Shown here one piece after another: positions 1,582 to 56,910 of a DNA stretch of 64,000 nt (within the stretch, counting starts at the first letter, position 1; each line of letters starts with the position of its first letter). The DNA comes from Candidatus Campbellbacteria bacterium (GTDB taxonomy: Bacteria > Patescibacteriota > Minisyncoccia > Phycocordibacterales > EsbW-18). The stretch is taken from NCBI GenBank assembly GCA_016699465.1, contig CP064977.1, positions 619,739 through 683,738 of the forward strand, given 5' to 3'. The notes beneath the pieces were generated by a model. That model ran no database searches and was not told where the DNA came from. It saw only the letters and a list, made by a program, of their open reading frames with translations. A program made the position numbers and the translations under genes.

Positions 1582-1626
1582 TTTTTTGAGCTTTATATTT
1601 TAAATTTTGAATTTCATTTATCATTT

Positions 1627-2286: not shown

Positions 2287-2298
2287 ACCAATACCTAT

Positions 2299-2721: not shown

Positions 2722-2758
2722 TTGCAGAAATAGTGTGAAGACTGTAGTATACGCGAAC

Positions 2759-2950: not shown

Positions 2951-2951
2951 T

Positions 2952-3191: not shown

Positions 3192-3200
3192 TACATTTAT

Positions 3201-3680: not shown

Positions 3681-3902
3681 ATGCACGTTAAAAAAGGAGA
3701 CAAAATCACCGTACTAACCGGAAAAGACAAAGGAGCCTCAGGCACGATTCTTAAGGCGTTGCCAAAGAAGGATATGGTTATTGTTGAGGGTGTAAACAAA
3801 GCAAAACGACACCAGAAAGCACGAAAAGGTAACCAGAAAGGTCAAATTCTTGAGAAGTCTATGCCAATTCACGTGTCGAACGTAAAGAAGGTAAAAGCAT
3901 AA
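3681..3902 (+). CDS. rplX: 50S ribosomal protein L24
   Basis: [39 protein letters not shown] (KOW motif) is L24; start at ATG 3681. Confidence 0.9.
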
Positions 3903-3990
3903 AGCTCAAAGCACAAAATCCAAAAAAATTAAAAAATACCAAATCAAAAATTTTGAGCTTTGAAATTTGAACTTTGGATTTATACATATC
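3903..3990. repeat. family-A intergenic palindromic repeat, copy 2
   Basis: About 85% identical to 3573..3680; fills the rplX-rplE spacer and ends at the rplE start. Confidence 0.8.
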
Positions 3991-4554
3991 ATGATTACGG
4001 TAAAAGAAAAACAGAATAAGGCATTTGAAGCCCTCAAGGAAACACTCGGTGTTAAAAACCGCATGGCTATTCCACGTGTTACGAAGGTTATTGTGTCTGT
4101 TGGTACAGGTTCAGCAAAGGATAAGAACAAGATTGAGGTTATCCAGGATCGTTTGATGAAAATTACTGGGCAGAAACCAGCTGGACGTGTTGCAAAGAAA
4201 TCAATTGCATCATTTAAACTTCGAGAAGGACAGGTGATTGGCTATCAGATTACACTTCGTGGTGATCGTATGTACGATTTTCTTGATCGACTCATCAACA
4301 TTGCTTTTCCTCGTACGCGTGACTTCCGTGGTATTGAACGAGACTCCATTGATCCTATGGGAAACATAACTATTGGTATCAAAGAACACAGTATTTTTCC
4401 TGAAACAGCCGACGAAGAAATTCGAGATGTGTTCGGCCTTGCTGTAAGTATCGTAACAACAGCAAAGAATAAGGAAACAGCGGAGAAATTCCTTGAATAC
4501 ATCGGCATTCCATTTAAGAAAGCAGGGGAAGTAAAAACAAAGAAGAAAAAATAA
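3991..4554 (+). CDS. rplE: 50S ribosomal protein L5
   Basis: NRMAIPRVTKVIVSVGTGSA...ITLRGDRMYDFLDRLINIAFPRTRDFRG is L5. Confidence 0.93.
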   Translation: MITVKEKQNKAFEALKETLGVKNRMAIPRVTKVIVSVGTGSAKDKNKIEVIQDRLMKITGQKPAGRVAKKSIASFKLREGQVIGYQITLRGDRMYDFLDRLINIAFPRTRDFRGIERDSIDPMGNITIGIKEHSIFPETADEEIRDVFGLAVSIVTTAKNKETAEKFLEYIGIPFKKAGEVKTKKKK

Positions 4555-4562
4555 GAGACAGA

Positions 4563-4600
4563 AAAGCCCCGCCCGGCAAAGAGGGTGGGGTTTTTCCTTT
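4563..4600 (+). terminator. intrinsic-terminator-like hairpin between rplE and rpsN
   Basis: ccccgccc-ggcaaagag-gggtgggg stem-loop (one G-U) followed by ttttt ccttttct. Confidence 0.55.
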
Positions 4601-4603
4601 TCT

Positions 4604-4632
4604 ATTGCACAAAAAGCCGGGTTCTGGTAGTA
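4604..4632 (+). promoter_or_regulatory. candidate promoter TTGCAC-17-TAGTAT for rpsN, followed by ~150-nt leader
   Basis: ttgcac aaaaagccgggttctgg tagtat immediately after the terminator hairpin; the leader 4633-4780 has several palindromic segments. Confidence 0.4.
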
Positions 4633-4780
4633 TACGTGGGCTTAACTTTGAGTTGAGCTTGTCCTCTTAGAGCCAATAGGCACCGGAGGAGACCATCGCC
4701 TCGTTATCTGTCAGCCGGTCAATTCGCAAGAATTGGTCCATGGACACATCGAGAGGCAGCATTTTTTTTGGAAAAAATAT

Positions 4781-5050
4781 ATGGCACGAAAAGCAATTAT
4801 TGCACGAGACAAAAAAAGAGTAGCGATGCGAGTGAAGTCAGCTCCCAAGCGAGCAGCGCTCAAGGAAGCCCACGATTACGAGGGTCTTCAGGTATTGCGC
4901 AAAAATGCATCACCGGTTCGCACAAAGAATCGTTGTTTTAAATGCGGTCGCCCACGAGGATATATGCGCGAATTCGGCCTCTGCCGTATTTGTTTCCGTG
5001 AACTCGCAAACAAGGGAATGATTCCAGGTGTTAAGAAGGCAAGTTGGTAA
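4781..5050 (+). CDS. rpsN: 30S ribosomal protein S14 (long Zn-ribbon C+ form)
   Basis: [13 protein letters not shown]...[29 protein letters not shown] has four Cys; start at ATG 4781 inside ORF 4733..5050. Confidence 0.9.
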
Positions 5051-5139
5051 TAGAGTAAGCACAAAGCTCAAAGCACAAAATCCAAAAATATTAATCTAAC
5101 TTTTTTGAACTTTGAATTTTGAACTTTGAATTTGAAATT
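5051..5139. repeat. family-A intergenic repeat, copy 3
   Basis: aagcacaaagctcaaagcacaaaatccaaaaa...tttgaactttgaattttgaactttgaatttgaaatt in the rpsN-rpsH spacer. Confidence 0.75.
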
Positions 5140-5529
5140 ATGATAACCGATCCTCTCGCAAACTTCATAACAGCACTTCAAAACGCAGCAAAAGCTGGTG
5201 TTGAAACCGTTGTGGTACCTCATTCACGCCTCAAGGATTCCGTTGCAACTATTTTGAAAAAGGAAGGATATCTTTCAAGTGTTGAACGTAAGGGTAAAAA
5301 GACAAGTAAGATTGAGGTAACGCTTGCATATGACAATGGTGAAGCACACGTTCATGGTGTAAAGCGCATTTCAAAACCATCTCGTCGTATGTATCTTGGA
5401 GTTTCTGAGATTTACGGAGTGAAGAATGGATACGGACATCTCGTTCTCTCAACGCCAGAAGGTATTATGACTGGTCAGCAAGCAAAGAAAGCAAAGGTTG
5501 GAGGAGAAGTCCTTTTTGAGATTTGGTAA
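5140..5529 (+). CDS. rpsH: 30S ribosomal protein S8
   Basis: MITDPLANFITALQNA...GHLVLSTPEGIMTGQQAKK..GGEVLFEIW is S8. Confidence 0.93.
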   Translation: MITDPLANFITALQNAAKAGVETVVVPHSRLKDSVATILKKEGYLSSVERKGKKTSKIEVTLAYDNGEAHVHGVKRISKPSRRMYLGVSEIYGVKNGYGHLVLSTPEGIMTGQQAKKAKVGGEVLFEIW

Positions 5530-5632
5530 AAGATAATAAAAGCATAAAACACAAAGCACAAAATCCAAAAATAAAATCTAAATCTAATTTTTTGAACTTT
5601 GAATTTTAGATTTTGAACTTACACCATCATTT
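5530..5632. repeat. family-A intergenic repeat, copy 4
   Basis: cacaaagcacaaaatccaaaaataaaatctaaatctaattttttgaactttgaattttagattttgaactt in the rpsH-rplF spacer. Confidence 0.75.
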
Positions 5633-10376: not shown

Positions 10377-10402
10377 TTTTGTACCGATATATCGGTACAA
10401 AA
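10377..10402. repeat. perfect palindrome ttttGTACCGATATATCGGTACaaaa (copy 1 of 3)
   Basis: 26-bp perfect palindrome in the adk-map spacer; the same 20-bp core recurs at 47119-47138 and 51489-51508. Confidence 0.85.
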
Positions 10403-18283: not shown

Positions 18284-18868
18284 GTGTCTTCCAAAGAGAT
18301 TATTGGAAGAAGGTTAATTCTCCGTCCAATACGAGAGGGTGATCTCCAACTTCTCTACGAGTGGCGTAATGAGATACATTTCCGAAACCGATGCTCAAAC
18401 CGGAAGTATAAAGTTACTTTCCAGGAGTTTATCTCTGAAATTCGTGCTGATTTTTCAAAAGATCGACACGAACAGTGGATAATCTTGAGGAAGCCATCAC
18501 GGGGTCCGGTTGGAACAGTTTACACCTACAACTTTGACAAAGACGGAAAACACAGCTTTCTAAGTCTGTATGCCGTTCCGCGTCTCTGGGGTTCGGGTCT
18601 CGGGGTTGAGTGTCTGGCTCTTCTCGCGGAGTATCTGTTCGGCGAGTTTGAGCTGTACAAGTTATATATGGACGTATATGAGTACAACGCTCGAGTTGTT
18701 TCAGCACTAACAAAAGCGGGACTTTCCGTTGAGGGAAGATTCAGGGGTCATAGACTTTTAAGAGGAAAGCGCTACGATGTTGTTAGGTTTGCTCTATACC
18801 CAGACGTGTTGTTCAAACACGAAAAGCTCATAAGGTCTTTTCAGGTACACAACGCGGAAAGGAGGTGA
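18284..18868 (+). CDS. GNAT family N-acetyltransferase
   Basis: RRLILRPIREGDLQLLYEWRN...GLGVECLALLAEYLFGEFELYKLYMDVYEYNARVV; GTG 18284 preceded by ggagg. ORF 18137 upstream extension overlaps the terminator hairpins. Confidence 0.65.
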   Translation: MSSKEIIGRRLILRPIREGDLQLLYEWRNEIHFRNRCSNRKYKVTFQEFISEIRADFSKDRHEQWIILRKPSRGPVGTVYTYNFDKDGKHSFLSLYAVPRLWGSGLGVECLALLAEYLFGEFELYKLYMDVYEYNARVVSALTKAGLSVEGRFRGHRLLRGKRYDVVRFALYPDVLFKHEKLIRSFQVHNAERR

Positions 18869-18873
18869 TATAC

Positions 18874-19089
18874 GTGAGCAAGTACAGCGAGAAGGACGCC
18901 AGCAAGGATACAGGCTCCTCTTCTAAGGAGACCTCTCGTTCCTGGCATGACGCTCGAGATGACTCTGGTGCTCGTAGTGGTGGAGACAAGGAGCATTTTG
19001 AGAGTGCTCCTTCGTGGGCAGACTCAACCACAGAGTCAGGTATTTCGCTTTTTCCCGAAAGAAGTTCGTCGGGCGGAAGCGGCAAGTAG
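18874..19089 (+). CDS. hypothetical small acidic Ser-rich protein
   Basis: GTG 18874 preceded by aaaggagg; 71 aa, low complexity. Confidence 0.3.
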   Translation: MSKYSEKDASKDTGSSSKETSRSWHDARDDSGARSGGDKEHFESAPSWADSTTESGISLFPERSSSGGSGK

Positions 19090-19150
19090 CACAGGGTAGT
19101 ACAATGATGGGGGTGCTGAAGCCGGCATCCCCATTTTCTATACGACAATC

Positions 19151-19887: not shown

Positions 19888-20062
19888 AATAGGAGAATCT
19901 GGTCTATAGGGGATAGAAATACCCTTACATACATGGTTTTTTGTTTGTTTGAGTGGAAGCTACTGAACCATAACGGTGAGGTTGACAATGTGTTTCTTTG
20001 TGATATAATAGAAATCAGAAAACATGTGGGACGACCCCCTCATGTAGAAATAGGAGGATGCC

Positions 20063-20560
20063 ATGAACTGGGTGACGGGATCTGTTCTCGCGCTCGTCTG
20101 TTGGGCGGCGATTTACGTTTTCGCCGCAAAAGCTGCGCACAACGGGGCAGAGATCAATCTTGTCCTCGAAGTGCTCGGATCCCTCGCTGTCGTGGCCTTC
20201 ATGTGCCGTAACATCAGCTGGGGCATGATCAAGGCCAACGAGGTCACCCTCGAGTCCTGCCTCTACGGACTTGCGGGCGGTGTGCTCTACGGACTGGGGC
20301 TGTATTTTTCCCTCTCCGTGTTCACGAGCACTCCCGAACGTATCAACGAGAGTTCGGTTATCGCTGGGATGAATCCCGTCCTGGCGGTGGTTCTCATCCT
20401 CATCGTCCAGAAGTTGTTCCCAAAGTTCATCAGTGAGGTGGGGACGCTTCGGCCGACGCAGTGGGCCGGTGTACTGTTCGCCGCTCTGGCCCTTGTCCTG
20501 ATTACGTGGGACGAGGGGTGGACCGAAGGTATCACCACTGCTGTTAAGAAGTTCTTTTAA
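20063..20560 (+). CDS. hypothetical membrane protein in GC-rich island
   Basis: aggagga RBS 7 nt before ATG; 165 aa with 4-5 TM helices; GC much higher than flanks. The antisense ORF 20015..20590 is a shadow. Confidence 0.55.
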   Translation: MNWVTGSVLALVCWAAIYVFAAKAAHNGAEINLVLEVLGSLAVVAFMCRNISWGMIKANEVTLESCLYGLAGGVLYGLGLYFSLSVFTSTPERINESSVIAGMNPVLAVVLILIVQKLFPKFISEVGTLRPTQWAGVLFAALALVLITWDEGWTEGITTAVKKFF

Positions 20561-20585
20561 CCAACGACTGGTTGTCGTTGATGCA

Positions 20586-20620
20586 GCCACAGGATTAGGA
20601 ACCCTGTGGCTTTTGCGTTC
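20586..20620 (+). terminator. rho-independent terminator
   Basis: gccacagg-attaggaac-cctgtggc followed by ttttgcgtt. Confidence 0.65.
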
Positions 20621-20664
20621 TTAGGTTTTTGATAGATAATGGATAGTACTAATTTTAACCTTAT

Positions 20665-25928: not shown

Positions 25929-25966
25929 AAACACCCCGCCTAGCAAGGCGGGGTGTTTCGTTCTTT
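25929..25966 (+). terminator. rho-independent terminator
   Basis: aacaccccgcc-tagcaa-ggcggggtgtt followed by tcgttcttt; lies just upstream of the ABC exporter RBS. Confidence 0.7.
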
Positions 25967-26015
25967 AACAACCGAATACCCAACAAACACTCTTCCAACG
26001 AAAGGGGAGAATACT

Positions 26016-27845
26016 ATGAGCAACGAGATGGAGGCAAAGGCACCGGCAACGTTCAAGGAGTTTCTGGCGGAGTTCAAAGAGACATGTGACACTGTTCGCT
26101 ATGTGTTTCGTCTCACCGATTCTCCGGACGCACGCACGTGGCTCTACAGGAAGTACTTTCTTGTGGTTGTACTGATTCTCATGAGCATGTTTCAACCGAG
26201 AGTGACGGGAATGATTTTCAAAGGCGTCGTGAACAACAACGCCAACCGAATCATCCTGTCTGTCGCTCTTCTTGGCGCACTCATGCTCTTCGAGAAACTT
26301 GTTGCGCTTCTCTACTGGAGGGCGCACGAGTATCTCTTTGGACTGTCCACAGGAAATCTCTATGTACGGATTACCGAGCGGTTTTTTGAAAAGTCGCCCG
26401 GGCAACACCGTCATGTGAAGTCGCTCAACTACGAAAGTGTTAACAAAGGCAAAGACAAAGCTTTTGATATGCACGTTAATCAAGTTCCTGAGCTCGCGGA
26501 AGCAACGCTCACCATCGTGATCGCGTACGCTCTCGTGTGGACTGTTTCACCGTTTGGTGGAATAGTACTCGGGATTGCCATGTGCATTAACATTGCATGG
26601 TCAATCTACCTGAATTATCTCGTCGCGGTCGTGTGCACTCCCATCGAGCGCGACTTCAGTCGCTTCAGGCGTTTTTTTGCTGAGGTGTTTCGTCTCTTTG
26701 AACGTGTGTACGTCTCAAACCGAAAACAGTTTGAAGTCGAACGCATCACACAGCGGTGGCAAGATCTTGCTGTTCGTGATCGAACGTTTTGGTTGCGTCA
26801 CGGCAAGCATGCGACTGCTATGGATATGGTTATGGTTCTCGCAGCACTGATTGTGATTGGTCGTGAATCACTGCACAGTATAGTAAACGACCAAGGCGCA
26901 GGTGCTGTTGCTGTGTTGTATCCACTCTTCGCGTGGTCGAGGCAGATTATCGGCGATATTTGGCGCATCAGACACACTGAACGCCGGATTTACGAGTCGG
27001 TTTCGTCGGTACGGGTTATGCGCGAAACACTCGACATCGTTCCTGATGTTGTTGACAGTGAAAACGCGCGCACACTCGATGCTGAGCACGCGTTGACGCT
27101 TGCGTTCGAGAACATCTCGTACTCGTATCCTCATTCAAACGGCACAATCCAGAACGTTTCGTTCTCGGTGTGTCCGGGAGAAAAAATCGCACTTATTGGT
27201 CCCACCGGGTCTGGTAAGTCAACGATTGAGTATCTTGCGATGCGCTTCATGGACCCGACATCTGGGCGCGTGTGCATCAACGGGCGTGACATTCGGGAGT
27301 ATCAAAGCGGTTCGCGTCTCAACGCAATCGGATACATTCCGCAGAAGCCCCTCATCTTTGATGGAACCGTGCGGGAGAATCTCCTGTACGGTGTTTCTCC
27401 GCATGAGGGGTGTGTGTGGACCGACGCAGAACTTCTCGAACTCATGAACGATCTCGCGATTGACTTCGGGGTGCGTCCAGAGGGTGAAAATCCTCTCGAC
27501 ATCATCGTCGGTCGTGACGGTGTTCAGCTTTCGGGTGGGCAGGCACAACGTCTCGCAATCGGAGCGGCGGTTATCAAACAGCCGAAGCTTCTCATTGTTG
27601 ACGAGGCAACGAGTGCGCTTGATTCGTCCACGGAAACGCAGACACTTGAAGGTTTGCGTAAGTGGATTAACGGATCCGGTATGCTCGTTGTAGCGCATCG
27701 TCTGTCGACGGTGCGCGATGCCGACCGCATTATCGTTCTTGCGAACGGTAAAATTGAAGCGGTCGGAACGTCGTTTGACGAGCTCGTTGGTTCTTCGGAA
27801 ACGTTCCGGAAACTGATTGCTCATCAGGACCATCTGTTGGGGTAG
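26016..27845 (+). CDS. ABC transporter, fused permease/ATP-binding exporter
   Basis: N-terminal 6-TM domain; NBD with GPTGSGKST Walker A, LSGGQAQRLAIGAAV signature, LLIVDEATSALD Walker B. Start at ATG 26016 after aaaggggag. Confidence 0.88.
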   Translation: MSNEMEAKAPATFKEFLAEFKETCDTVRYVFRLTDSPDARTWLYRKYFLVVVLILMSMFQPRVTGMIFKGVVNNNANRIILSVALLGALMLFEKLVALLYWRAHEYLFGLSTGNLYVRITERFFEKSPGQHRHVKSLNYESVNKGKDKAFDMHVNQVPELAEATLTIVIAYALVWTVSPFGGIVLGIAMCINIAWSIYLNYLVAVVCTPIERDFSRFRRFFAEVFRLFERVYVSNRKQFEVERITQRWQDLAVRDRTFWLRHGKHATAMDMVMVLAALIVIGRESLHSIVNDQGAGAVAVLYPLFAWSRQIIGDIWRIRHTERRIYESVSSVRVMRETLDIVPDVVDSENARTLDAEHALTLAFENISYSYPHSNGTIQNVSFSVCPGEKIALIGPTGSGKSTIEYLAMRFMDPTSGRVCINGRDIREYQSGSRLNAIGYIPQKPLIFDGTVRENLLYGVSPHEGCVWTDAELLELMNDLAIDFGVRPEGENPLDIIVGRDGVQLSGGQAQRLAIGAAVIKQPKLLIVDEATSALDSSTETQTLEGLRKWINGSGMLVVAHRLSTVRDADRIIVLANGKIEAVGTSFDELVGSSETFRKLIAHQDHLLG

Positions 27846-30963: not shown

Positions 30964-30984
30964 TGAGGCACCGCCGAGGCGGTG

Positions 30985-31060
30985 CAAGTTCAAAATCCAA
31001 ATATCAAAATCCAAAATATATTTTTTTGAGTTTTGTACTTTGAGCTTTGTGCTTGTTTCA
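30985..31060. repeat. family-A repeat, inverted/partial copy
   Basis: caaaatccaaatatcaaaatccaaaatat...tttttgagttttgtactttgagctttgtgcttg is the reverse-complement flavour of the ribosomal-operon spacer repeat. Confidence 0.6.
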
Positions 31061-32169: not shown

Positions 32170-32335
32170 CATGTTCAAAGAACCTGTGGAGTGGATTGAA
32201 ATTGACAGGGACATCTCTGGAAATGGTTGCCTTGTCAGCGTAGGTCTCGCGCTCGGTCTCATCGGACTTTTGTTCGTTCGCTGTTTCTCCTCGGGATACG
32301 CGTTTTTCAAAAAGAAGTTTCAAAAGAAGTTCTAG
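32170..32335 (+). CDS. hypothetical small membrane protein
   Basis: Strong SD ggaggagg then ATG; one TM helix; 54 aa. Confidence 0.35.
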
Positions 32336-35445: not shown

Positions 35446-35510
35446 ATTTGACTTCTTCTATTTTTGTAATATATTTATCTTAGTAACGTTCCTACTCATG
35501 GAGGTGGTAT

Positions 35511-35819
35511 ATGAGAGTCGCTCACGCGGTCTCTCGAGACCGCCACCAACTTCGACTTGTTCCTCGCGAAGGAACGAAGCTCTCAACTGACCAGAAAGAG
35601 TTTCTCGACATACTGCACCGAGAGGCGATTCTATCGCCCCGAGCAACGGTCGTGTGGAAAGAGCTTCAAAGTCAGGGGCTCAGTGCTCGGCAAGCGTTTG
35701 CTGCGTACTGGCTCATGAGAGATTTGTTTGTCGGGAAAGGTTTCAAGGGGTTTAATCAGGATGAACTTTTTGCGGTTCTTCGCGAAATCGAGGAGCAAAA
35801 TCCACCGCTTGTGGGGTGA
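35511..35819 (+). CDS. hypothetical protein
   Basis: 102 aa; tggaggtggtat RBS before ATG. Confidence 0.45.
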   Translation: MRVAHAVSRDRHQLRLVPREGTKLSTDQKEFLDILHREAILSPRATVVWKELQSQGLSARQAFAAYWLMRDLFVGKGFKGFNQDELFAVLREIEEQNPPLVG

Positions 35820-35837
35820 GGTACCCCGCAAGCGTCA

Positions 35838-37494: not shown

Positions 37495-37500
37495 AACGCT

Positions 37501-37537
37501 GTCCGTCCCTATGGATTCGAACCATGAACCGCCGAGG
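37501..37537 (-). repeat. diverged partial copy of tRNA 3' half (T-arm plus acceptor)
   Basis: gtccgtccctatggattcgaaccatgaaccgccgagg resembles the 3' half of the intact tRNA 40 nt away; the 5' portion is unrelated. Confidence 0.6.
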
Positions 37538-37580
37538 ATATCTTTGATATGAAACTTCGTTCGGACTATGCAAATCTGTG

Positions 37581-37654
37581 TCCGCCCCCATGGACTCGAA
37601 CCATGAACCGCCGAGGTATAAGCTCGGTGCTCTAACCAATTGAGCTAGGGGCGG
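37581..37654 (-). tRNA. tRNA with anticodon UAU (Ile, AUA-decoding)
   Basis: Minus-strand cloverleaf: acceptor CCGCCCC/GGGGCGG, D arm GCTC-AATTGGTTA-GAGC, anticodon arm CCGAG-CTTATAC-CTCGG, T arm CATGG-TTCGAGT-CCATG. Anticodon TAT read by eye; C1-G72 start unusual. Confidence 0.7.
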
Positions 37655-37758
37655 ACACAAATTTTCAAAAATCCTCACTCGTTTCCATATCTACGATACA
37701 CCAGGTTCACTCGCTCGGAGAAGAAAACAAGTTCTCTTCTCCTCACTCGTTGCCTGCC

Positions 37759-37796
37759 GTAAGCTCGGTGCTCTAACCAATTGAGCTAGGGGCGGG
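37759..37796 (-). repeat. partial copy of tRNA 5' half (acceptor through anticodon stem)
   Basis: gtaagctcggtgctctaaccaattgagctaggggcgg is identical to the 5' half of the intact tRNA at 37617-37654; no 3' half follows. Confidence 0.7.
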
Positions 37797-37938
37797 CAAC
37801 AGTAGCTATTGTGATATCTGAAGTGCTTGAATGCAACTGTTTAATAACCACGTGGTCAAACGTTGTACGCTATAAAAGACGGTCGTCTTCTATGGCGTAC
37901 ATGTCTTTGCCTAGCAGTTTAGCTGTAACTTTACTACA

Positions 37939-43541: not shown

Positions 43542-43774
43542 TTGACTCTTTTTTGTTTGGGGAGTAAGGCCTCCGTCAAGAAGAAGGTTTCCCGTCGGAG
43601 AACTCCTCCAACGGTGATGAGGGCGAAGAAGCGTTGCACGTAATGCGACGTCATATCAGCCCCGTCGCTAGCGACGGGGCGCTATTTATAAAGTTTTCTT
43701 TTGTTGACTGAAATACTATGCAGGTGTACGTTTTGAGTAGAAGTTAACAGTCAAACTCCCGAAAGGAGGAGCCC

Positions 43775-44122
43775 GTGAGTCGAAGGGAAAGAAGAAAAAT
43801 TGTAAGGGTGCGCTTCAGTTGCCTGGTTGAAGAGGGCATCGATGACCACCCTGGAAATACGCTTTGGATGGAACTCGAGGGCGGCAGTCCTTTGCGGTAC
43901 GAGCTCGAGCTCGCCATTCCGGGAGCGTTCTCTGACGGGGATGTGAGGGATCTCCTTTCTCGCATGGTCCCGTTCTTTCTAGAGCGAGCGAGGAAGGACA
44001 TGATGGAAACGTTCCCAAGGATTCGAAAGAGAGTCCTGGAGTGGAACGTGTCATGGAGACTCCTCAGGAAGGGCGAGGCGAAAGCGGAAGCTCGTCTCCA
44101 GCGACTCCTCCGGGGCTTTTGA
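43775..44122 (+). CDS. hypothetical protein encoded in GC-rich island
   Basis: GTG start preceded by aaggagga; Arg-rich 115 aa; the 43.55-44.2 kb segment is much more GC-rich than flanks. Confidence 0.4.
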   Translation: MSRRERRKIVRVRFSCLVEEGIDDHPGNTLWMELEGGSPLRYELELAIPGAFSDGDVRDLLSRMVPFFLERARKDMMETFPRIRKRVLEWNVSWRLLRKGEAKAEARLQRLLRGF

Positions 44123-44217
44123 TGACCTGTTGAGGATCTGTTCATTTCGCTCGCGCCGTCGGCATTGCCGGCGGCGTTTTGCTATCCACTCTCTTTCCCC
44201 AGATTTTTTGGTAAGGC

Positions 44218-44245
44218 TTGACATGGTGTTTTCTGTGGCTATAAT
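44218..44245 (+). promoter_or_regulatory. consensus sigma70 promoter TTGACA-16-TATAAT, candidate rRNA promoter
   Basis: cttgacatggtgttttctgtggctataatg lies ~300 nt upstream of the 16S 5' end. Confidence 0.6.
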
Positions 44246-44549
44246 GGGTGCTCCTCTAGTAATCAGTCCCGTTCGTCGGTTCGACTGGCGATCGGGACTT
44301 TTCTAGACAGATCTTTGACAACTGAATGTAGACCAGCTTGTACACCGAGTACGTGTATGAGTTGGATAGCCAGCACGCACTTGCCACCGCTTGTACGTGC
44401 TGGAAAACCCGTCTTTTTCCGACGCAGATTGTCGTACAACATCTGTGTCAAAAAAGAAATACAAAATATAGAAAATTAGAATGGAGAAAAAGAGCTAATC
44501 ACAATTTTTCTTTTGTTCTGCTCATTTGGGTGAAAATTTATTTTCATCT

Positions 44550-46135
<1,586 letters not shown>

Positions 46136-46311
46136 AGTCAAATGACAATCGTTGAACATCGAAATTTTTTCATGTTTGATCTAGGCGGTCGATATCATGT
46201 ACCTCAATTGAGTACGTGATGGATAGTAACTGGACATCTTTAAGTCAGTTGGACACCAGGGAAAGACCGGTTGAGCAGAACAAAAGAAAGACTGTGATTT
46301 TAAAAAAATAG

Positions 46312-46600: not shown

Positions 46601-46688
46601 GTGCTTGACAAAGTCATTGTTTGTGCTACTATTGAAAACAGAAGAAATCGGGGAATTACCCCCACAAGGACTTCGGGAGAAGAATTTT

Positions 46689-46931
46689 ATGAATCCGCAC
46701 AGTCGTTCGTTGAAGTGCAGTGGCCAGAAGGTGGTGGCTCGTCGGCGCGATTTTCGCGTCGTAAGCGCCGCGTGCGGGCTCTTCAGTTTCCTGCTCATTC
46801 TCTCGTCGGTGTCTGAGCATACGACACCGACGGGAAGCGTCGTCGCCCTCACCCTCGCCGCCGCTTTCGGGCTGGCGGCCTGGGCACTCGGATCCCGCCG
46901 TGGTGGGATCCGGATCCGCATCGACAACTGA
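46689..46931 (+). CDS. hypothetical membrane protein in GC-rich island
   Basis: gggagaagaatttt ATG; 80 aa with 2 TM helices; GC-rich 46.69-46.99 kb. Confidence 0.35.
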   Translation: MNPHSRSLKCSGQKVVARRRDFRVVSAACGLFSFLLILSSVSEHTTPTGSVVALTLAAAFGLAAWALGSRRGGIRIRIDN

Positions 46932-46942
46932 TGCAAATCCAC

Positions 46943-46967
46943 CGCCGGTTCAAGTCCGGCAACAACA
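46943..46967 (+). other. tRNA 3'-end-like fragment (T-arm plus acceptor) with no complete tRNA
   Basis: gccgg-ttcaagt-ccggc-aacaaca has the T-stem/loop/stem and 7-nt acceptor layout, but no matching 5' half upstream. Confidence 0.4.
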
Positions 46968-47114
46968 GTACGCGCCCTTCGGGGAAAGGCGGCTGTTTTT
47001 TTATCTAGTATTTAACTTAAGTGCTGGATTTATACAAAGTGGAAATTGTGGGTTGGAGGTGGGAAGTGGCAAATTGGAAATTTATTAGATTGGGATTATT
47101 TTGATACACCACAT

Positions 47115-47142
47115 CAACTGTACCGATATATCGGTACAGTTG
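47115..47142. repeat. perfect palindrome caacTGTACCGATATATCGGTACAgttg (copy 2 of 3)
   Basis: 28-bp perfect palindrome; same 20-bp core as 10380-10399 with different, still palindromic flanks. Confidence 0.85.
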
Positions 47143-51484: not shown

Positions 51485-51512
51485 ACTCTGTACCGATATA
51501 TCGGTACAGAGT
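51485..51512. repeat. perfect palindrome actcTGTACCGATATATCGGTACAgagt (copy 3 of 3)
   Basis: 28-bp perfect palindrome after murC. Confidence 0.85.
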
Positions 51513-51592
51513 GCGTGCTGTGAATATAAAATTTTTATGCAAACCCGGAAACACTCTTGTAAAACAATCGACCTGGATTTTTCTATAGATAT

Positions 51593-51931
51593 GTGGCATA
51601 TTCTTTCAAGAAAGAAGCCGTTTTCTACACACCAACCAGAGGAGAAAAGGTTGTGATACAAGCAGTGCAGACGCGTCCCGCATTCCCCGCAGTCGGTACA
51701 GTCTTCGAGCCCACCGCGAGCTCGGAGATCACCCCGCTTGGTCTCGTCCTCGACTTTGGATACAACTCCGAGAGCCGGCCTCTGGCTGGAGTTCGTCGAG
51801 GTCGCCGAGTAGCGTTTCGTTTCCAACTCATGCCCCGCCCGTTTTCTGTAACAATACAAAAACGAGGCAGGGCATTCTTGTTTTTAAAAATCGTAAAGGC
51901 GTTGTTTTTAGAGAAGGGAAACCGTGTCTGA
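51593..51931 (+). CDS. hypothetical ORF in short GC-rich island (strand and frame uncertain)
   Basis: ORF 51593..51931 (+) and antisense ORF 51470..51859 (-) are both open. A plus-strand terminator hairpin at 51828-51895 lies inside the 3' end of the + ORF, so neither model is clean. Confidence 0.2.
   Translation: MAYSFKKEAVFYTPTRGEKVVIQAVQTRPAFPAVGTVFEPTASSEITPLGLVLDFGYNSESRPLAGVRRGRRVAFRFQLMPRPFSVTIQKRGRAFLFLKIVKALFLEKGNRV
51828..51895 (+). terminator. extended hairpin plus U-tract
   Basis: atgccccgcccgtttt-ctgtaacaatac-aaaaacgaggcagggcat followed by tcttgttttt. Confidence 0.5.
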
Positions 51932-51970: not shown

Positions 51971-52693
51971 ATGTACACACCTGACGAAAAACAGAATTTG
52001 GAAAATGTGCCACTTGGAACGCTTTTTGTTGTGGGGACACCAATTGGTAATTTGGAAGACGTCACGCTTCGCGCGCTCCGTATTTTGAAAGAAGCGGATG
52101 TTATTTTTTGTGAAGATACACGCGTGACCAAACGATTGTTGGATAAGTATGATATTCACACACGTACATCATCTCTCAATGCGCGAACTGAGCATGCAAA
52201 AATTGGTTCCGTGATGGGGGCGTTGACGGAAGGGAAGAAAGTTGCATTGGTGTCAGATGCGGGCACACCAGGAATTTCTGATCCAGGTTCGCTCGTTGTT
52301 TCAGTGATTCGAGAAAAAATGCCGGACGTGCGCATTGAAGCAATCCCAGGACCCTCGGCGCTGACCACAGCACTTTCAATCGCAGGTGTACCAATTGCTG
52401 ACTTTGTATTCTTGGGATTTTTACCTCACAAGAAAGGACGACAAACACTCTTTAAAGAAATGGAAGAATCGAAACGTGCGACAGTATTCTATGAATCTCC
52501 GCACCGAATTATGAAAACACTCGCAGTGCTTGCGGAATCACTTGATGGCGCGCGCACAATTTCAATTGCGCGTGAACTCACCAAAATTTATGAAGAAATT
52601 GTGCGTGGAAATGCACAAGAAGTGCTGAGTTACTTTGAATCAAACGAAGACAAACAACGAGGTGAGTTTGTAGTAATTGTCTCAGGGAAATAA
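51971..52693 (+). CDS. rsmI: 16S rRNA (cytidine1402-2'-O)-methyltransferase RsmI
   Basis: GTLFVVGTPIGNLEDVTLRALRILKEADVIFCEDTRVTKRLL is the tetrapyrrole-methylase-fold RsmI N-terminus; 240 aa. Confidence 0.85.
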   Translation: MYTPDEKQNLENVPLGTLFVVGTPIGNLEDVTLRALRILKEADVIFCEDTRVTKRLLDKYDIHTRTSSLNARTEHAKIGSVMGALTEGKKVALVSDAGTPGISDPGSLVVSVIREKMPDVRIEAIPGPSALTTALSIAGVPIADFVFLGFLPHKKGRQTLFKEMEESKRATVFYESPHRIMKTLAVLAESLDGARTISIARELTKIYEEIVRGNAQEVLSYFESNEDKQRGEFVVIVSGK

Positions 52694-52709
52694 ATAGGGA
52701 ATAAGGTAA

Positions 52710-52738
52710 GGGCCGCTCGTGGAGAGCGGCCCTGTTCT
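52710..52738 (+). terminator. terminator hairpin after rsmI
   Basis: gggccgctc-gtggaga-gcggccc followed by tgttctg. Confidence 0.55.
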
Positions 52739-53056
52739 GATGTGCTACGGAGAGCGTTCGTGAGACTGAGCCCACGAGCGAGATGCTGGATCACCCCCTT
52801 AGGAAGCGGTACCTTGGCCGAAACGGCTCTTGGTACCGGTGCTGGTCGAACCGTTGACGTTGACCTTCACCGGGCACGCGGCGCTTCCCATCACCCCTCC
52901 TCACCATGAGTATGTGTCCGTTCTAGTACGGAAGTCACACCTCACAGTATCCGTTGTGATACTAGCATAGTATTTTATTTGGATACAGTACTTTGTGGCG
53001 CATGTTTTGTATGTATCCCACATGATTGTATATCCGCATATTTGGTAAGATGCTGA

Positions 53057-53365: not shown

Positions 53366-54690
53366 GTGTACCTTCTCTGAACAAAACATCTCGTGTTAAA
53401 AAAATATACACACGTACACGGTATGCACTCATTGGGTGTGGTGGTCTCATTGCGGTTTTTTGTTTTGGTTTTTTTATTGCGCCAGCTCTTTTTTCTTCAA
53501 CATACACACGGATGTCAGGAAATACAGAGGTGCTTGCTGAAAAAATAGAAAAAAAGGAAACAACAGATGTGGTGCACATACCAACACCGAGTGCGGTTAA
53601 GGCGATTTACATGTCGCAGTGTGTTGTGGGCACTCCTTCGTTTCGCGATAAACTAGTTGCGCTTATCGATGACACAGAACTTAACAGCGTCATCATCGAT
53701 GTAAAAGATTTTTCTGGAAAAATTGGATTTACAACCGACAATCCCGTTCTCGCTGGCGCAGTATCAGACGCGTGCGGTGCTCGTGATATGAAAGAGTTTA
53801 TCAAAGTGCTCCACAGTAAAAATATTTACACGATTGCGCGTATTACGGTTTTTCAAGATCCATACTATACAAAAGCGCACCCGGAACTTGCGGTGAAAAA
53901 AGCAAGTGATGGCAGTGTGTGGAAAGATAATAAAGGCCTTTCGTTTATTGATGTTGGGGCACAGCCATTTTGGGAATACATTGTGGAGCTTGGGCGTGCG
54001 TCGTATGCGCTTGGGTTTGATGAACTCAACTTTGATTATGTTCGCTACCCCTCCGATGGAAACATGAAAGACATTGCGTTTACGTTTTCAAAAGGAGTTT
54101 CAAAGGCAGATATGCTTGAACGATTTTTTTCGTACCTCTATGAGTCGTTTGATACAGGAGAAACACCGACGTTTGGGTTGCGTCCGTCACGTCGTGATGC
54201 GTTGGATAGTACACGACCCGCGCTGTCTGTTGATTTGTTTGGATACACAACAACAAATACTGACGACCTTGGGATTGGGCAAGTGCTCGAGCGTGCTCTC
54301 CCATACTTTGATTACGTAATGCCGATGGTGTATCCATCTCACTACAACTCTGGATTTATTAATATTCCAAAACCAGCAACGGAGCCATACAAGGTGGTGA
54401 AGTATTCTATGGATGCATCGGTTCGTCGTGCGCGACTCTTGGGTCTTGCTGGTGCGTCGGAAGCAACATCGACCGAGATGGTATTCTTGCGCGGGCAATC
54501 ACAAAAAGGTCACGGTAATATCACCATTCAGCAAATGCGTCCATGGCTACAAGATTTTGATATGGGAGCGACGTATACGCCGGAGATGGTGCGTGCGCAG
54601 ATGCAGGCAACATACGACGCTGGTTTGACCTCGTGGGCGCTGTGGGACGCGGGGAACACGTATACGCGCGGTGCCTTGAATGCACAATAA
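53362..54690 (+). CDS. putative glycoside-hydrolase-like TIM-barrel protein (COG1306/GHL family) with N-terminal membrane anchor
   Basis: N-terminal TM helix then VKAIYMSQCVVGTPS...NSVIIDVKDFSGKIGF...GFDELNFDYVRYPSDG, typical of the putative glycosyl hydrolase DUF4015 family. Confidence 0.55.
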   Translation: MSVPSLNKTSRVKKIYTRTRYALIGCGGLIAVFCFGFFIAPALFSSTYTRMSGNTEVLAEKIEKKETTDVVHIPTPSAVKAIYMSQCVVGTPSFRDKLVALIDDTELNSVIIDVKDFSGKIGFTTDNPVLAGAVSDACGARDMKEFIKVLHSKNIYTIARITVFQDPYYTKAHPELAVKKASDGSVWKDNKGLSFIDVGAQPFWEYIVELGRASYALGFDELNFDYVRYPSDGNMKDIAFTFSKGVSKADMLERFFSYLYESFDTGETPTFGLRPSRRDALDSTRPALSVDLFGYTTTNTDDLGIGQVLERALPYFDYVMPMVYPSHYNSGFINIPKPATEPYKVVKYSMDASVRRARLLGLAGASEATSTEMVFLRGQSQKGHGNITIQQMRPWLQDFDMGATYTPEMVRAQMQATYDAGLTSWALWDAGNTYTRGALNAQ

Positions 54691-55948
54691 GTGTATGTTG
54701 GATAGATTTTCAATTTCAAAATCATTCTGGGCACTCTTTTTATTTGCACTGTTTTTTAAATTTGGCGCAGGATTGCACTACACGCTTCTCTCAACTCTCG
54801 GTGAGCGCGTATTTCCTGTGTGGGTAGCGGGTTGTATTATCAGCGCCGCGTCAGTCCTTCAGATGATTGGTGATGTTCCTGCGGGCATGCTCTTGGATAA
54901 ATATGGGTACACACGAATGCTCAAAATTTTTGTGTGCGTTTTTATTCTTGCTGGAGGAGTACTCTTTTTTGGTTTAACACCAGTGACGTTTATTGGTACC
55001 GTTATTCTCTCGACACTCGGATGGCTCTTTTTTGGTCCTGGGGTGAATGCGTACGTTCTTGCAGAGGCGCCACATCGAAGCGCGGGCAGGGCAATGGGAA
55101 TGTTGCACATGTTTGATAGTACAGGTGTTGTTGGTGCAACAGCACTGCTTGCGTTTGTTATTTCTGCTTCTCCACAATATATAGGATTTGTTATCTCAAT
55201 GCTTCTTTTGTGTGCACTTATGTTTTTGTTGTTTGTTCCAAAAGAATCGGTATCGGTGCATCGTGTAGAAAAAACTCCTCGTCACCAGTACTACATTCGC
55301 CGACATTTTTTGCATACAGTTGTAGGTGCGGTTCGGAAACTGAATCCTGCAAGTATGATACTTGCATTGCAAAGTTTTGCTGCAGCATCGTTTTACGGAA
55401 TGATCTGGTTTGTTGTTCCTCTTGCGATTGCTGGTGGTTTGGCAGGCACGTTGCCAAGTATTGGTTTGGGTGTTTTTGATCTTGCAGTGGTACTGCTCGG
55501 TGCGTTTTTTGGAAAACTTGCAGACACGACGCATAAACCATTTCTTGTTGCGCTTGGATTGTTTCTTTTTGCTGGGGCTGGTTTGTTACTTGGTTTTAAT
55601 CTCAACATACTTTTTCTGTTACTTGGTTTTATTGCGACTGCAGGAGATGAACTTTCTAATGTCTCGCTGTGGGCGTGGCTTGATACACTTGATGCTGACC
55701 ACGCACAAGATGGTCTTGTTAATGGAGTCATTACTTTTTTTGAGGATGTAGGATGGGCTGTTGGTCCGGCAATTGCAGGTGCGTTGTTTACTCGTATTGG
55801 ACCAGGGGGTGTCATTATCGTCGGTGCAAGTATTCTTTGTATCGTTTGGCTTATTGTGTTGGTGGTTCTATTTCAACAGAGAGGACGTACTATTCTTGGA
55901 CACAGGCATGCATTAGGTGCTCCATACCGCTCTCGTCATAAGCGATAG
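54680..55948 (+). CDS. MFS transporter
   Basis: 12 predicted TM helices, GDVPAGMLLDKYGYTRML-like loop motif; 422 aa. Confidence 0.7.
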   Translation: MHNKCMLDRFSISKSFWALFLFALFFKFGAGLHYTLLSTLGERVFPVWVAGCIISAASVLQMIGDVPAGMLLDKYGYTRMLKIFVCVFILAGGVLFFGLTPVTFIGTVILSTLGWLFFGPGVNAYVLAEAPHRSAGRAMGMLHMFDSTGVVGATALLAFVISASPQYIGFVISMLLLCALMFLLFVPKESVSVHRVEKTPRHQYYIRRHFLHTVVGAVRKLNPASMILALQSFAAASFYGMIWFVVPLAIAGGLAGTLPSIGLGVFDLAVVLLGAFFGKLADTTHKPFLVALGLFLFAGAGLLLGFNLNILFLLLGFIATAGDELSNVSLWAWLDTLDADHAQDGLVNGVITFFEDVGWAVGPAIAGALFTRIGPGGVIIVGASILCIVWLIVLVVLFQQRGRTILGHRHALGAPYRSRHKR

Positions 55949-56010
55949 TTCTTGCTATTTCTTCTTTTGGGATGTAGGGTGTCTGTGGATATATACAGAA
56001 AGGAGGTGGC

Positions 56011-56767
56011 GTGAACACTTTCCCCGTCTTTGTTTCGTGCTCAGTTCGCATTACGAGTCACGCAGTGACCCGCTACCTTCATTGGAAGCGGAAGTTGCTT
56101 GGGTGGCCTAGTTCGAAGTCGCTCGCTCGTCAGGAAATCCTCCACGCACTTGGGTTCGCGGTTCCCTGCACGTTAGATAATCTTCTAACGTACCGTCAGA
56201 GTTCCGATAAGTGGGGATTCCCGGTCATTTTTTATCATACGTCTCCGTGGAGATTCGTGATAAAAGATGAAAATCCGTACGAGTGGGTCGTTCTCACCAT
56301 CGAGCCCGATGTGTACCCAAACAACACGGGTCCATGGAAGGGGGTTGAGGGGGTTTCAGAAATTGCCCTCGATCCACCGTTCACCATTGGTGATATTGTG
56401 CGCTACAAGGGGTACAAGACTCAGGCCGATAGACGCCAACAAAGGGAGGAGAAAGGAGATGGTGAACCCATCGTGTTGCTTCTTGGTGGGTCGACTCGAA
56501 GTGGGAGATGTTATCCTTACTTTGACAAGTTACACCAAGGGGAACGTGCGGGTGCGGGTTGTGCGCGGCGGGAGGGCCTTGCAGTGGGTCCACTCACGTG
56601 ACGGTTTTCAGTTCGAGGGGTGGTTTGACGGTATCTCATGTCCCACAGAGTTGGGACGAACACTCAAGGTCGTTGCCAACATGTCTGGTTGTACGGGCGT
56701 CGTTGAGCATTCTCTCGACGAAGAGTTGAAGAGCGGGGGGTGGGTCGCGTTTCGCCTCGTGCAATAG
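56011..56767 (+). pseudogene. hypothetical gene in GC-rich island, apparently frameshifted
   Basis: Protein-like frame from GTG 56011 (RBS aaaggagg) to about 56465, continuing in the +1 frame from about 56475 to 56767. Region 55.95-56.78 kb is GC-rich. Confidence 0.4.
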
Positions 56768-56910
56768 CTGTAGTTGTTCTTGTGGGAAAAAAGTGTGCCG
56801 AGATGTCTGCGAGGACAGCTCGGCGCTTTTTCTTTTCTCCTTTTGTGTTTTATACTACTATTGATAATTTTATATTCTACATTCATTCTTTTGTATTCTA
56901 TTTTTCACAC

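Follow-up and report, generated by a model that had tools for sequence, protein, structure and literature searches.

A conserved two-gene operon encoding a putative toxin/antidote pair, led by Shine-Dalgarno motifs, in a Paceibacteria clade whose 16S rRNA lacks the anti-Shine-Dalgarno sequence

The 64,000-nt stretch of DNA analysed here (the window) carries, at 55950-56840, a compact unit of two small co-oriented genes with one promoter-like element and one terminator, laid out as a self-contained module in the order promoter-like element, Shine-Dalgarno (SD) motif, gene A, SD motif, gene B, terminator. All features of this unit lie on the plus strand. The putative promoter (55952-55980) comprises a -35-like TTGCTA (55952-55957), a 17-nt spacer and a -10-like TAGGGT (55975-55980). 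A consensus promoter scanner made no call at these positions. The pattern TTGC(Y)N - 17 nt - TA(G/T)GGT is kept upstream of A in the window and in the related loci L001, L002, L083, L084, L085 and L021, with flanking sequence that cannot be aligned among the window and its relatives, and it is this conservation that suggests a promoter.

Gene A (56011-56601, 196 codons as it stands) begins with GTG, 2-4 nt after the SD-type motif AAAGGAGGTG (55999-56008). It consists of a conserved domain with a predicted RelE/ParE fold and a C-terminal helix (56011-56457), followed by a lineage-specific tail of 48 codons (56458-56601) that is read over gene B. Gene B (56459-56767) encodes a small alpha/beta protein of 102 aa, the presumed antitoxin or immunity partner of A. 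Its own SD-type motif, GGGAGGAG (56444-56451), lies inside the 3' part of A, with the GGAGG core at 56445-56449, 9 nt before the ATG of B, and is unchanged in the alignment with L001 and L002. Both genes have a purine-rich GGAGG 4-10 nt upstream of the start. The unit is closed, ahead of a gene for a T4CP-like ATPase (ATG at 56911), by an intrinsic-terminator-like hairpin (56795-56838; GCCGAG...CTCGGC, then GCTTTTTCTTTT), the stem base and T-run of which are conserved and the fold z-score of which is -2.5 in the window and -4.6 for the homologous hairpin in L021. In the public annotation A is cut to 114 aa, minus its conserved N-terminal domain, and B is represented among the called proteins only by a 73-aa fragment.

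An earlier note on this DNA had described a single gene with an apparent +1 frameshift near 56465. Both reading frames do exist, frame 1 being open at 56011-56601 and frame 2 to 56767, with both open together over 335 nt (56267-56601) and a coding switch at 56425-56459. However, what they represent is an overlap of two genes rather than one broken gene. In eight of the nine related lineages that carry both, A and B are separate genes, both of them with an SD and a start codon of their own, and a standalone A of 127-155 aa and a standalone B of 99-108 aa are the rule (about 14 true matches among 1.84 billion representative proteins). The junction itself varies: A and B are separated by 118 nt in L086, 28 nt in L087, 15 nt in L083 and a single nucleotide in L021, and overlap by 7 nt in L003, by 14 nt in L084 and L085, and by 143 nt in the window and L002. 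Up to 56424, substitutions concentrate at the third codon position of frame A, and from 56459 onwards at that of frame B, and the codon-position GC pattern in the tail of A is that of frame B. With dN/dS values of 0.07-0.14 (A) and 0.22-0.29 (B; 0.24 between the two split genomes), both genes are under purifying selection, and therefore neither a pseudogene nor a sequencing error accounts for them.

The alternative is that a single ancestral A-B protein was +1-frameshifted near 56465, by inactivation or by sequencing error. L001 does have a continuous A-B ORF of 255 codons (3043-3810), and the window genome, as an IPJ-tagged MAG, may be a long-read assembly, a kind in which indels are frequent. 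However, L001 is the only fused case, and what makes its ORF continuous is a 14-nt tandem duplication at the junction, visible in the alignment and in the P0001 sequence, which looks derived; the unit concerned, CAAGACTCAGGCCG, is present in the window as a single copy (56415-56428). In eight other lineages A and B are separate genes with stop codons, and L002, an independent Logan/Illumina-derived contig, is split in the same way as the window, so that re-sequencing of the junction is unneeded. The combination expected of a frameshifted pseudogene, an intact single ORF in relatives and a neutrally evolving downstream part, was not found, B remaining under purifying selection even between the split genomes. 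The one-gene view is thus largely refuted, and we give it very little credence. Programmed +1 ribosomal frameshifting, which would yield an A-B fusion besides A and B, might exploit the 335 nt over which both frames are open, and the natural in-frame fusion in L001 shows that a fused product is tolerated. However, no conserved shifty site was seen, the junction differs in sequence and geometry in each lineage, from gaps to 7- or 14-nt overlaps, and B has strong start signals of its own; we consider such a mechanism highly improbable.

Returning to two separate genes, the ancestral layout would have been A and B abutting each other. In the lineage of the window, loss of the A stop codon would have added 48 codons across the start of B and so produced the apparent frameshift, and in L001 the tandem duplication would have fused the two genes in frame; this direction of the stop-loss and fusion events is the one we infer. 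Very close relatives show the junction in three states (A and B separate, overlapping by 143 nt following stop loss, or fused by the 14-nt duplication), and the locus illustrates in nature how overlapping and fused genes come about.

A and B had not been filed as a protein family before. Among 15 billion proteins the family has about 20 members, which are confined to one subclade of Paceibacteria and are invariably encoded immediately ahead of the T4CP-like ATPase gene. In L001-L006, L021 and L083-L087, this position directly upstream of the ATPase gene is taken by the pair or by A alone. The contigs of L083 and L085 belong to assemblies GCA_964631485.1 and GCA_024653945.1, respectively. The orthologs occupy the same site in at least 11 lineages at 26-51% amino acid identity, the accompanying T4CP proteins being 66-73% identical, and in every lineage A and B exceed the surrounding locus in GC. 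Searches of 1.84 billion representative proteins and of phages and plasmids found no homolog of A or B beyond the clade, a phage or plasmid origin found no tblastn match, and single-protein locus scans of metagenome and viral contigs returned nothing. Two candidates from the exhaustive search, P0005 and P0017, were rejected as family members, since they are repeat proteins whose scores are inflated. The A-B pair is absent from more distant Paceibacteria, and thus an ancient acquisition is possible.

The earlier note had regarded the unit as one of five small GC-rich islands of foreign DNA, with no integrase in the window. There is indeed no integrase near the islands, and island 5, which contains A and B, has no flanking direct repeats either. 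However, diverged orthologs at the same site in at least 11 lineages, together with the lack of a donor homolog outside the clade, contradict a recent foreign origin of island 5, and its conservation in the nearest lineages is, for these, the very observation that the note had named as speaking against its own reading. Apart from base composition, none of the marks of a recent genomic island (presence/absence among relatives, an integrase, tRNA target or repeats, donor homologs) was found for island 5, which is inherited in the clade and not recently imported. Nor does anything found here support the delivery mechanism that the note had thought possibly common to the islands.

The base composition of island 5 is nevertheless atypical, with a GC content of 0.52-0.56 vs. 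0.44 and a GC3 of 0.58-0.65 vs. 0.32-0.42 in its neighbours. Over the whole window the mean GC is 0.440 (sd of 200-bp windows 0.054), and the profile is not uniform. All five islands stand out, being among the 23 segments with at least 0.54 GC: 20007-20637 (island 1), 43735-44298 (island 2), 46632-47071 (island 3), 51583-51906 (island 4), and 55967-56841 (island 5). Their GC content of about 52-56% is roughly 1.5-2 sd over the window mean, and their ORFs are GC3 outliers (0.54-0.65, compared with a mean of 0.394 and sd of 0.08). The five segments are therefore real, but the background had been described as AT-rich, which at 44% GC it is not strongly, and the list of islands was incomplete by at least three: 18841-19140, 35482-35834, and 52643-52984 are equally GC-rich. 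An ABC-transporter gene (25953-27845) is also as GC-rich as the named islands. The window as a whole is a piece of a Paceibacteria (CPR) genome of 44% GC.

The ORFs in the other islands, all on the plus strand, are small and mostly orphan. Island 1 encodes a multi-pass membrane protein of 165 aa (20063-20560, GC 0.57, preceded by TAGGAGGA), which is annotated as hypothetical (QQR82336.1), forms a singleton cluster and has only EamA and EMC6 matches below threshold in Pfam. Island 2 encodes an Arg-rich orphan of 115 aa (43775-44122, GC 0.56, preceded by AAAGGAGGA), also a singleton cluster and without matches in family-model scans. In island 3, an ORF for an 80-aa two-TM protein (46689-46931, GC 0.64), absent among the called proteins of the protein collection, has only a weak GGGAGAAG motif, and is followed by a T-arm-like hairpin at about 46944-46960 (GCCGG-TTCAAGT-CCGGC) and then by a terminator-like hairpin. 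This T-arm-like hairpin underlies the earlier suggestion of a tRNA 3' end; the hairpin exists, but neither ARAGORN nor Rfam (E<=1) reports a tRNA or a fragment of one, so that a tRNA remnant at 46943-46967 finds no support, and the T-loop motif by itself is expected by chance about 0.5 times per window. Island 4 contains an uncertain ORF of 112 codons without an SD (51593-51931) in the slot between MurC and TP_methylase, where relatives have an unrelated, SD-led, GC-rich gene of 218-252 aa. That island 4 is a decayed copy of that gene was rejected, there being no tblastn signal and no HMM signal in a six-frame translation. Likewise, structured RNA in islands 2, 3, and 4 was dismissed, as Rfam at E<=1 gives nothing beyond noise. 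Two further GC-rich, SD-led small ORFs on the plus strand had been overlooked, one of 71 aa (18874-19089, AAGGAGGTG) and one of 102 aa (35511-35819, GGAGGTG). Scans of A, B and the island ORFs against Pfam, PHROGs, NCBIfam, and PADLOC gave no useful match. Taken together, the islands form one class, characterized by raised GC and GC3, small orphan ORFs and mostly canonical GGAGG(TG) ribosome-binding sites.

The claim that GGAGG-type SDs are foreign to the native genes was borne out. GGAGG occurs 4-9 nt before the starts at 20063, 43775, 56011, 56459, 18874, 32171, and 35511, that is, ahead of A and B and of five or more further small ORFs, almost all of which are GC-rich, and upstream of none of 37 core genes with an ATG start. 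Among the relatives, GGAGGTG/GAGGTG motifs are kept upstream of A in nearly all lineages, and SD-like motifs are found ahead of B in all of them. Across loci, AGGAGG is two-fold enriched over its permutations; a looser cross-locus SD statistic was dropped, as control motifs show a background of about 60%.

The usual bacterial 16S rRNA ends with GGAUCACCUCCUUU at the position that pairs with such motifs. In the window, the 3' tail (46130-46143, plus strand) reads GGAUUUAGUCAAAU in the Rfam alignment and has no anti-SD sequence. CCTCC does not occur in the 16S gene of the window (the genome is 811 kb), CACCTCC does not occur on the plus strand of the window, and no hidden anti-SD was found inside or downstream of this 16S gene. 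CCUCC is also missing from the equivalent tail in 11 related loci. Therefore, the complementary CCUCC at the 16S 3' end on which SD-dependent initiation relies was found neither in the window nor in the 11 relatives.

One speculation, to which we assign a low probability, is that in this anti-SD-less CPR clade dispersed small GC-rich accessory genes, A-B included, keep canonical SDs (GGAGGTGA) under selection, implying a reader other than the known 16S. Such a reader might be a second, specialised rRNA or ribosome population, or the ribosomes of another cell, e.g., the host of the presumed episymbiont; otherwise the motif might have an anti-SD-independent function. A second 16S or stable RNA ending in CACCUCCUU, if present, would resolve the paradox via a specialised ribosome, and its absence would sharpen it. 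If confirmed genome-wide, the SD-led gene class would provide a direct handle on initiation in anti-SD-less bacteria and would show whether expression uses another mechanism or place.

Alternatively, the islands might be horizontally imported DNA, which could stem from, e.g., a GC-richer host or neighbour that uses SDs and might have arrived by DNA uptake; GC and SDs would then be donor signatures, and the import of A-B would have been ancient or recurrent (cassette exchange within the clade). The GC3 and SD anomalies are common to at least eight small orphan ORFs, the motifs reach GGAGGTGA, exactly complementary to the canonical 16S tail missing in this clade, and the slots between core genes differ among lineages. 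In addition, in L001 dS is 0.5 for A vs. 0.1-0.2 for B, which points to recombination inside the operon. However, A-B has one conserved position in at least 11 lineages and has kept its SDs and GC excess at 26-51% identity, a divergence across which neutral donor signatures should have decayed. The lack of homologs outside the clade and in phage and plasmid collections, and of an integrase, flanking direct repeats or a detectable tRNA fragment, also counts against import, which we therefore regard as unlikely, if worth keeping in mind. The best explanation is that the GC and GC3 excess and the canonical SDs are long-standing traits that A-B shares with a broader class of small accessory ORFs in this clade, not un-ameliorated donor signatures.

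As to function, AF2 models the core of A at a pLDDT near 90 and gives the protein an alpha/beta arrangement of the RelE/ParE (BECR) type, and the top nine Foldseek matches of this model are all RelE/ParE-type toxins (probability 0.72-1.00). Residues H17, R21, R62, R81, and E98 are invariant in 9-12 sequences, and this set of His, Arg, Arg, Arg, and Glu would be as expected of a small endoribonuclease-type toxin. By sequence, A and nine family members match no RelE/ParE/HigB/YoeB/BrnT-type model in Pfam, NCBIfam, or PADLOC (E<=0.1-1), and A matches no PDB sequence at E<=10. For B, sequence and profile searches of the PDB gave only noise, and structure comparison gave no match and no DNA-binding or known antitoxin or immunity fold. 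Neither protein is tied at the sequence level to toxin or antitoxin families in Pfam, NCBIfam, PADLOC, PHROGs, or PDB sequences.

Taken together, we hypothesize, with somewhat better than even confidence, that island 5 is an inherited, self-contained bicistronic operon encoding the RelE/ParE-fold protein A and its partner B as a putative toxin/antidote pair, i.e., a toxin-antitoxin or toxin-immunity pair with the toxin gene first. A, of roughly 140 aa, would act by cleaving RNA or by poisoning some other process of the cell, and B, an alpha/beta protein of roughly 100 aa with a separate translation start where A ends or close by, would bind A and hold it in check. Such a pairing would explain why the two genes are obligately paired, why their junction is tight, why both proteins diverge fast and why an A-B fusion is tolerated. 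It leaves the persistent GC3 excess and the conserved SDs in an anti-SD-less clade unexplained. L005 and L006 seem to carry A without B, which is unexpected for a lethal toxin; these copies of A could be inactive, or B could have diverged beyond detection. If A is an active toxin, A-B would be among few candidate conflict or addiction modules in minimal-genome symbionts.

The adjacency of A-B to the T4CP-like ATPase gene in all lineages carrying A or B raises another scenario, in which A is an effector-type toxin exported with this VirD4/TraD-type ATPase and B is its immunity protein, so that the pair would serve as a weapon against other bacteria or a host and not as an addiction module. However, A-B has its own promoter-like element and terminator, so that its transcription is separate from that of the ATPase gene, no domain for secretion or T4CP recognition is recognisable in A, and the same ATPase gene occurs without A-B in most Paceibacteria, so the adjacency may be plain inherited synteny. 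We consider export, as a weapon of either kind, rather improbable.

Loss of the anti-SD sequence is already known for a subgroup of Parcubacteria (Tsurumaki et al., RNA 2022, PMC9297842), and the window and the 11 related loci resemble that subgroup in having a 16S without CCUCC and core genes without SDs. The part of that paper drawn on here gives the rRNA feature, and a minority class of GC3-rich genes with conserved canonical SDs (GGAGGTG) is not among the matters it describes. For the operon, the closest known systems are type II toxin-antitoxin systems with a RelE/ParE-superfamily toxin encoded first (HigBA, MqsRA). In contrast to these, A lacks a sequence match to RelE/ParE/HigB/YoeB family models and, as a putative toxin, carries about 45 aa of additional conserved helical sequence at its C-terminus, and B shows neither RHH nor HTH nor any other antitoxin fold so far known. 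Further, the pair keeps one syntenic location, unlike genes that are scattered or mobile. Also among the closest to A is PYCH_01220 of Pyrococcus yayanosii (PDB 6l7q), an uncharacterised protein of 145 aa, which is archaeal and goes unseen in a sequence search with A. Finally, CdiA-CT/CdiI and other polymorphic BECR-fold pairs differ from A-B in that A is free-standing, without a delivery domain, and has no CDI, T6SS, or Esx context, only a soluble T4CP-like ATPase as neighbour; as in those pairs, a BECR-type fold is followed by a small, idiosyncratic alpha/beta gene, and both partners diverge rapidly.

The GC-rich segment 55950-56780 (island 5) was read in the earlier note as a single gene with a frameshift near 56465. 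In frame 1, an open stretch runs from a GTG at 56011, preceded by AAAGGAGGTG, to 56601 (gene A); frame 2 has an ATG at 56459, preceded by GGGAGGAG, and is open to 56767 (gene B). By codon-position GC, frame 1 is coding to about 56457 and frame 2 beyond, and the 48-codon tail of frame 1 (56458-56601) shows the pattern of frame 2. The public annotation of A is a 114-aa protein (QQR82371.1, 56256-56601) that uses an internal start and lacks the conserved N-terminal half, and B is called only as a 73-aa fragment (P0004, 56549-56767).

The history of the A-B junction is instructive. Two close relatives were found with an artificial A+B fusion as query. The match on Logan contig L002 (P0002), which is 97% identical to the window over 12 kb, has a split identical to the window's, while in the match on JGI contig L001 (P0001) the reading frame is continuous across the junction. 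The DNA alignment shows that window positions 56415-56428 are tandemly duplicated in L001 (CAAGACTCAGACCG-CAAGACTCAGGCCG); the extra 14 nt move frame 1 into frame 2 and thereby yield a single ORF of 255 codons (L001 3043-3810, compared with window 56011-56767). Between the window and L001, position 3 of frame 1 takes 34 of the 48 substitutions in 56011-56424, and position 3 of frame 2 takes 15 of 26 in 56459-56764; in the latter interval it takes 11 of 18 relative to L002. A and B are each under purifying selection (dN/dS 0.07-0.14 and 0.22-0.29, respectively), and these ranges cover the comparison of the window with L002, both of which are split. In L001, dS is several-fold higher for A (0.50-0.58) than for B (0.10-0.21), suggesting a recombination breakpoint at the A/B junction, the site of its duplication.

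To find more distant relatives, an A+B profile was run exhaustively with HMMER against 1.84 billion representative proteins. Of the 16 matches, two were repeat proteins and were discarded as spurious, another two (P0002 and P0004) are copies from the A and B lineage of the window itself, and the remaining 12 are standalone proteins, either A-type (127-155 aa) or B-type (99-105 aa). A profile search of a 5.8-billion-cluster index added only two members. By tblastn and contig look-ups, A-B, or A alone, lies directly upstream of the gene for a VirD4/TraD-type (T4CP-like) ATPase, which starts at 56911 in the window, in loci L003, L004, L005, L006, L021 and L083-L087. The junctions vary from an overlap of 14 nt (L084 and L085) or 7 nt (L003), through a stop, 1 nt and ATG (L021), to gaps of 15 nt (L083), 28 nt (L087) and 118 nt (L086). 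Given these junctions and the standalone proteins, separate abutting genes are the probable ancestral state; the stop of A appears to have been lost in the window's lineage, and A and B to have fused in L001. The frameshift reading is thus wrong for island 5, which has two genes, separate in distant relatives and both under purifying selection. A-B probably forms its own transcription unit, since a conserved upstream element (55952-55980; TTGC(Y)N, 17 nt, TA(G/T)GGT) and a conserved hairpin with T-run after B (56795-56838) enclose it. Its conservation suggests that the upstream element may act as a promoter, although a consensus promoter scanner made no call there.

Besides the 16S rRNA gene (44550-46143), the window contains one tmRNA and three tRNA genes, and its proteins include a DUF4015 glycosidase-like protein, an MFS transporter, the T4CP-like ATPase and an LTD/PKD protein. 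Across 185,579 species genomes, the best matches to the T4CP-like protein (54-77% identity) all come from Patescibacteria/Paceibacteria MAGs, namely Campbell-, Taylor- and Zambryskibacteria. In most other Paceibacteria, the DUF4015 gene adjoins the T4CP-like gene directly, without A-B. The slot between DUF4015 and A (54680-55948; L083 3910-4935; L084 2-406) has the MFS gene only in the window's nearest subclade, apparently in two pieces in L083; in other relatives it holds small ORFs led by a Shine-Dalgarno (SD) motif, encoding a soluble protein of about 80-92 aa and a TM protein of about 75 aa.

This conservation bears on the suggestion that island 5 is a recent import. The same site holds A-B in at least 11 lineages. 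Their T4CP proteins share 66-73% identity with that of the window, and for A and B identity has fallen to 26-51%. Both genes exceed the GC content of their own locus in every lineage, for example in L021 (A 0.53 and B 0.55 vs 0.41; GC3 0.49 and 0.65 vs 0.30-0.32) and L003 (GC3 0.66 and 0.77 vs 0.57-0.63). A neutral donor signature should decay over such divergence, yet the GC excess is kept, and the recent-import reading is wrong for island 5. No homologs beyond the clade were found in protein, phage or plasmid collections, and no integrase (as the earlier note had stated), flanking repeats or detectable tRNA fragment accompanies island 5. It is possible that A-B was acquired anciently by the ancestor of the subclade, or that such cassettes are exchanged within it.

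In composition, all five islands of the earlier note were recovered among 23 segments of at least 0.54 GC, and their ORFs are GC3 outliers (0.54-0.65 vs a mean of 0.394, sd 0.08, over a greedy ORF set). The islands are therefore genuine, although they deviate by a modest 1.5-2 sd or so. With a mean GC of 0.440 (sd 0.054; 200-bp windows), the background is not strongly AT-rich. The list itself was largely right but incomplete, as equally deviant segments lie at 18841-19140, 35482-35834 and 52643-52984, and a 630-aa ABC-transporter gene without SD (25953-27845; GC3 0.56) deviates as much. Three or four of the compositional outliers missing from that list are small SD-led ORFs (30-102 aa). The ORFs of islands 1-4 have no match in family libraries: a 165-aa membrane protein, annotated as hypothetical QQR82336.1 (19930-20600), a 115-aa Arg-rich protein (43560-44200), an 80-aa two-TM protein followed by T-arm-like and terminator-like hairpins (46690-46990), and an uncertain ORF of 112 codons without SD (51640-51860). 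Island 4 occupies the MurC/TP_methylase slot, where relatives have an unrelated SD-led GC-rich gene (218-252 aa), of which no remnant is detectable in the window. The synteny break between the window and L002 falls exactly at island 4; L002 has a reverse-transcriptase gene (1-1020; YADD motif) directly upstream of TP_methylase, in the place taken by MurC and island 4 in the window.

The earlier note had also proposed that GGAGG-type SDs are absent from native genes, and this holds: none of 37 core genes with ATG starts has an upstream GGAGG, their leaders being A/T-rich, and no relative checked has an SD before the T4CP-like gene. By contrast, GGAGG lies 4-9 nt 5' of seven small-ORF starts (18874, 20063, 32171, 35511, 43775, 56011 and 56459), including ORFs 18874-19089, 32171-32335 and 35511-35819, with a possible eighth case in a 30-codon minus-strand ORF starting at 52891 (52799-52891). 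All but one of these ORFs are within GC-rich segments, and several SDs reach the full AAGGAGGTG, which is exactly complementary to a canonical 16S tail. The window's own 16S tail (46130-46143) is GGAUUUAGUCAAAU, vs the bacterial consensus GGAUCACCUCCUUU; CCTCC is absent from the whole 16S gene and CACCTCC from the plus strand of the window. The anti-SD CCUCC is likewise missing from the 16S 3' end in 11 of 11 related loci that cover it (L018, L020, L025, L030, L035, L048, L051, L064, L065, L073 and L076), most having GGAnUAAUUCAAUUUGAAA or close variants, so that the replacement tail is itself conserved. Anti-SD loss has already been published for a subgroup of Parcubacteria (PMC9297842). Loci with such 16S ends also contain small SD-led GC-rich ORFs, and almost every tabulated A or B ortholog has an SD-like motif in front of it, often GGAGGTGA, within otherwise unalignable sequence. 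Over 87 loci and the window, AGGAGG at ORF starts ranks first of its 15 permutations (42 vs about 20); a looser cross-locus SD test was set aside as mostly background. A-B is thus one example of a wider set of SD-led, GC-rich mini-genes, a puzzling paradox in a clade that, by the 16S ends of the window and the 11 related loci, lacks the anti-SD.

Several repeat elements lie elsewhere in the window. The hairpin GCCGG-TTCAAGT-CCGGC (46944-46960), just 3' of the island 3 ORF, has a perfect T-loop motif. It is one of six matches to GGTTCRANYCC (0.46 expected), two of which are in called tRNA genes and one in a 3'-half copy of tRNA-Ile, with others at 7053 and 33847. On the minus strand (region 37500-37798), tRNA-Ile(UAU) (37580-37654) lies between a 5'-half copy that stops within the anticodon loop (37760-37798; 39 nt, 97%) and the 3'-half copy (37500-37537; 38 nt, 92%). 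The arrangement resembles a tRNA gene interrupted in its anticodon loop by an insert of 222 nt that holds a full copy. A perfect palindrome of 22 bp, YTGTACCGATATATCGGTACAR, is present in three copies (10379-10400, 47118-47139 and 51488-51509; 0 expected by chance), two of which flank islands 3 and 4. A dimeric regulator might use it as an operator, or it might be a small mobile palindrome. An A/T-rich inverted-repeat family (AAAGCACAAAGCTCAAAGCACAAAATCCAAAAA ... TTTTGAGCTTTGAAATTTGAACTTTGGATTT; 1489-5620, 30975-31054, 45660-45762) occupies many intergenic spacers, and one copy sits within the 16S rRNA gene, whose length exceeds the model by about 60 nt.

As for what A and B might do, neither has a sequence match to curated families or solved structures. 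An AF2 model of A from a nine-sequence alignment (pLDDT 75.5 overall, near 90 for residues 10-100) has the order beta, alpha, alpha, beta, alpha, beta, beta, beta and a C-terminal helix. Residues H17, R21, P52, R62, R81, V83, T96, E98, P99 and W109 are invariant in this alignment, and all except P52 stay so when three relatives are added. We read A-B as a probable toxin-first toxin/antidote pair, a function that we infer from a predicted fold. However, no sequence-level family link exists for A or B, the fold of B matches nothing known, and L005 and L006 are apparently A-only loci. The toxin/antidote reading draws on Foldseek, which independently ranks the RelE, ParE, PfiT and PrpT toxins first for A (probability 0.72-1.00), so that A is predicted to have a RelE/ParE-like fold, and A-B represents a new, very small family, a two-gene module resembling RelE/ParE.
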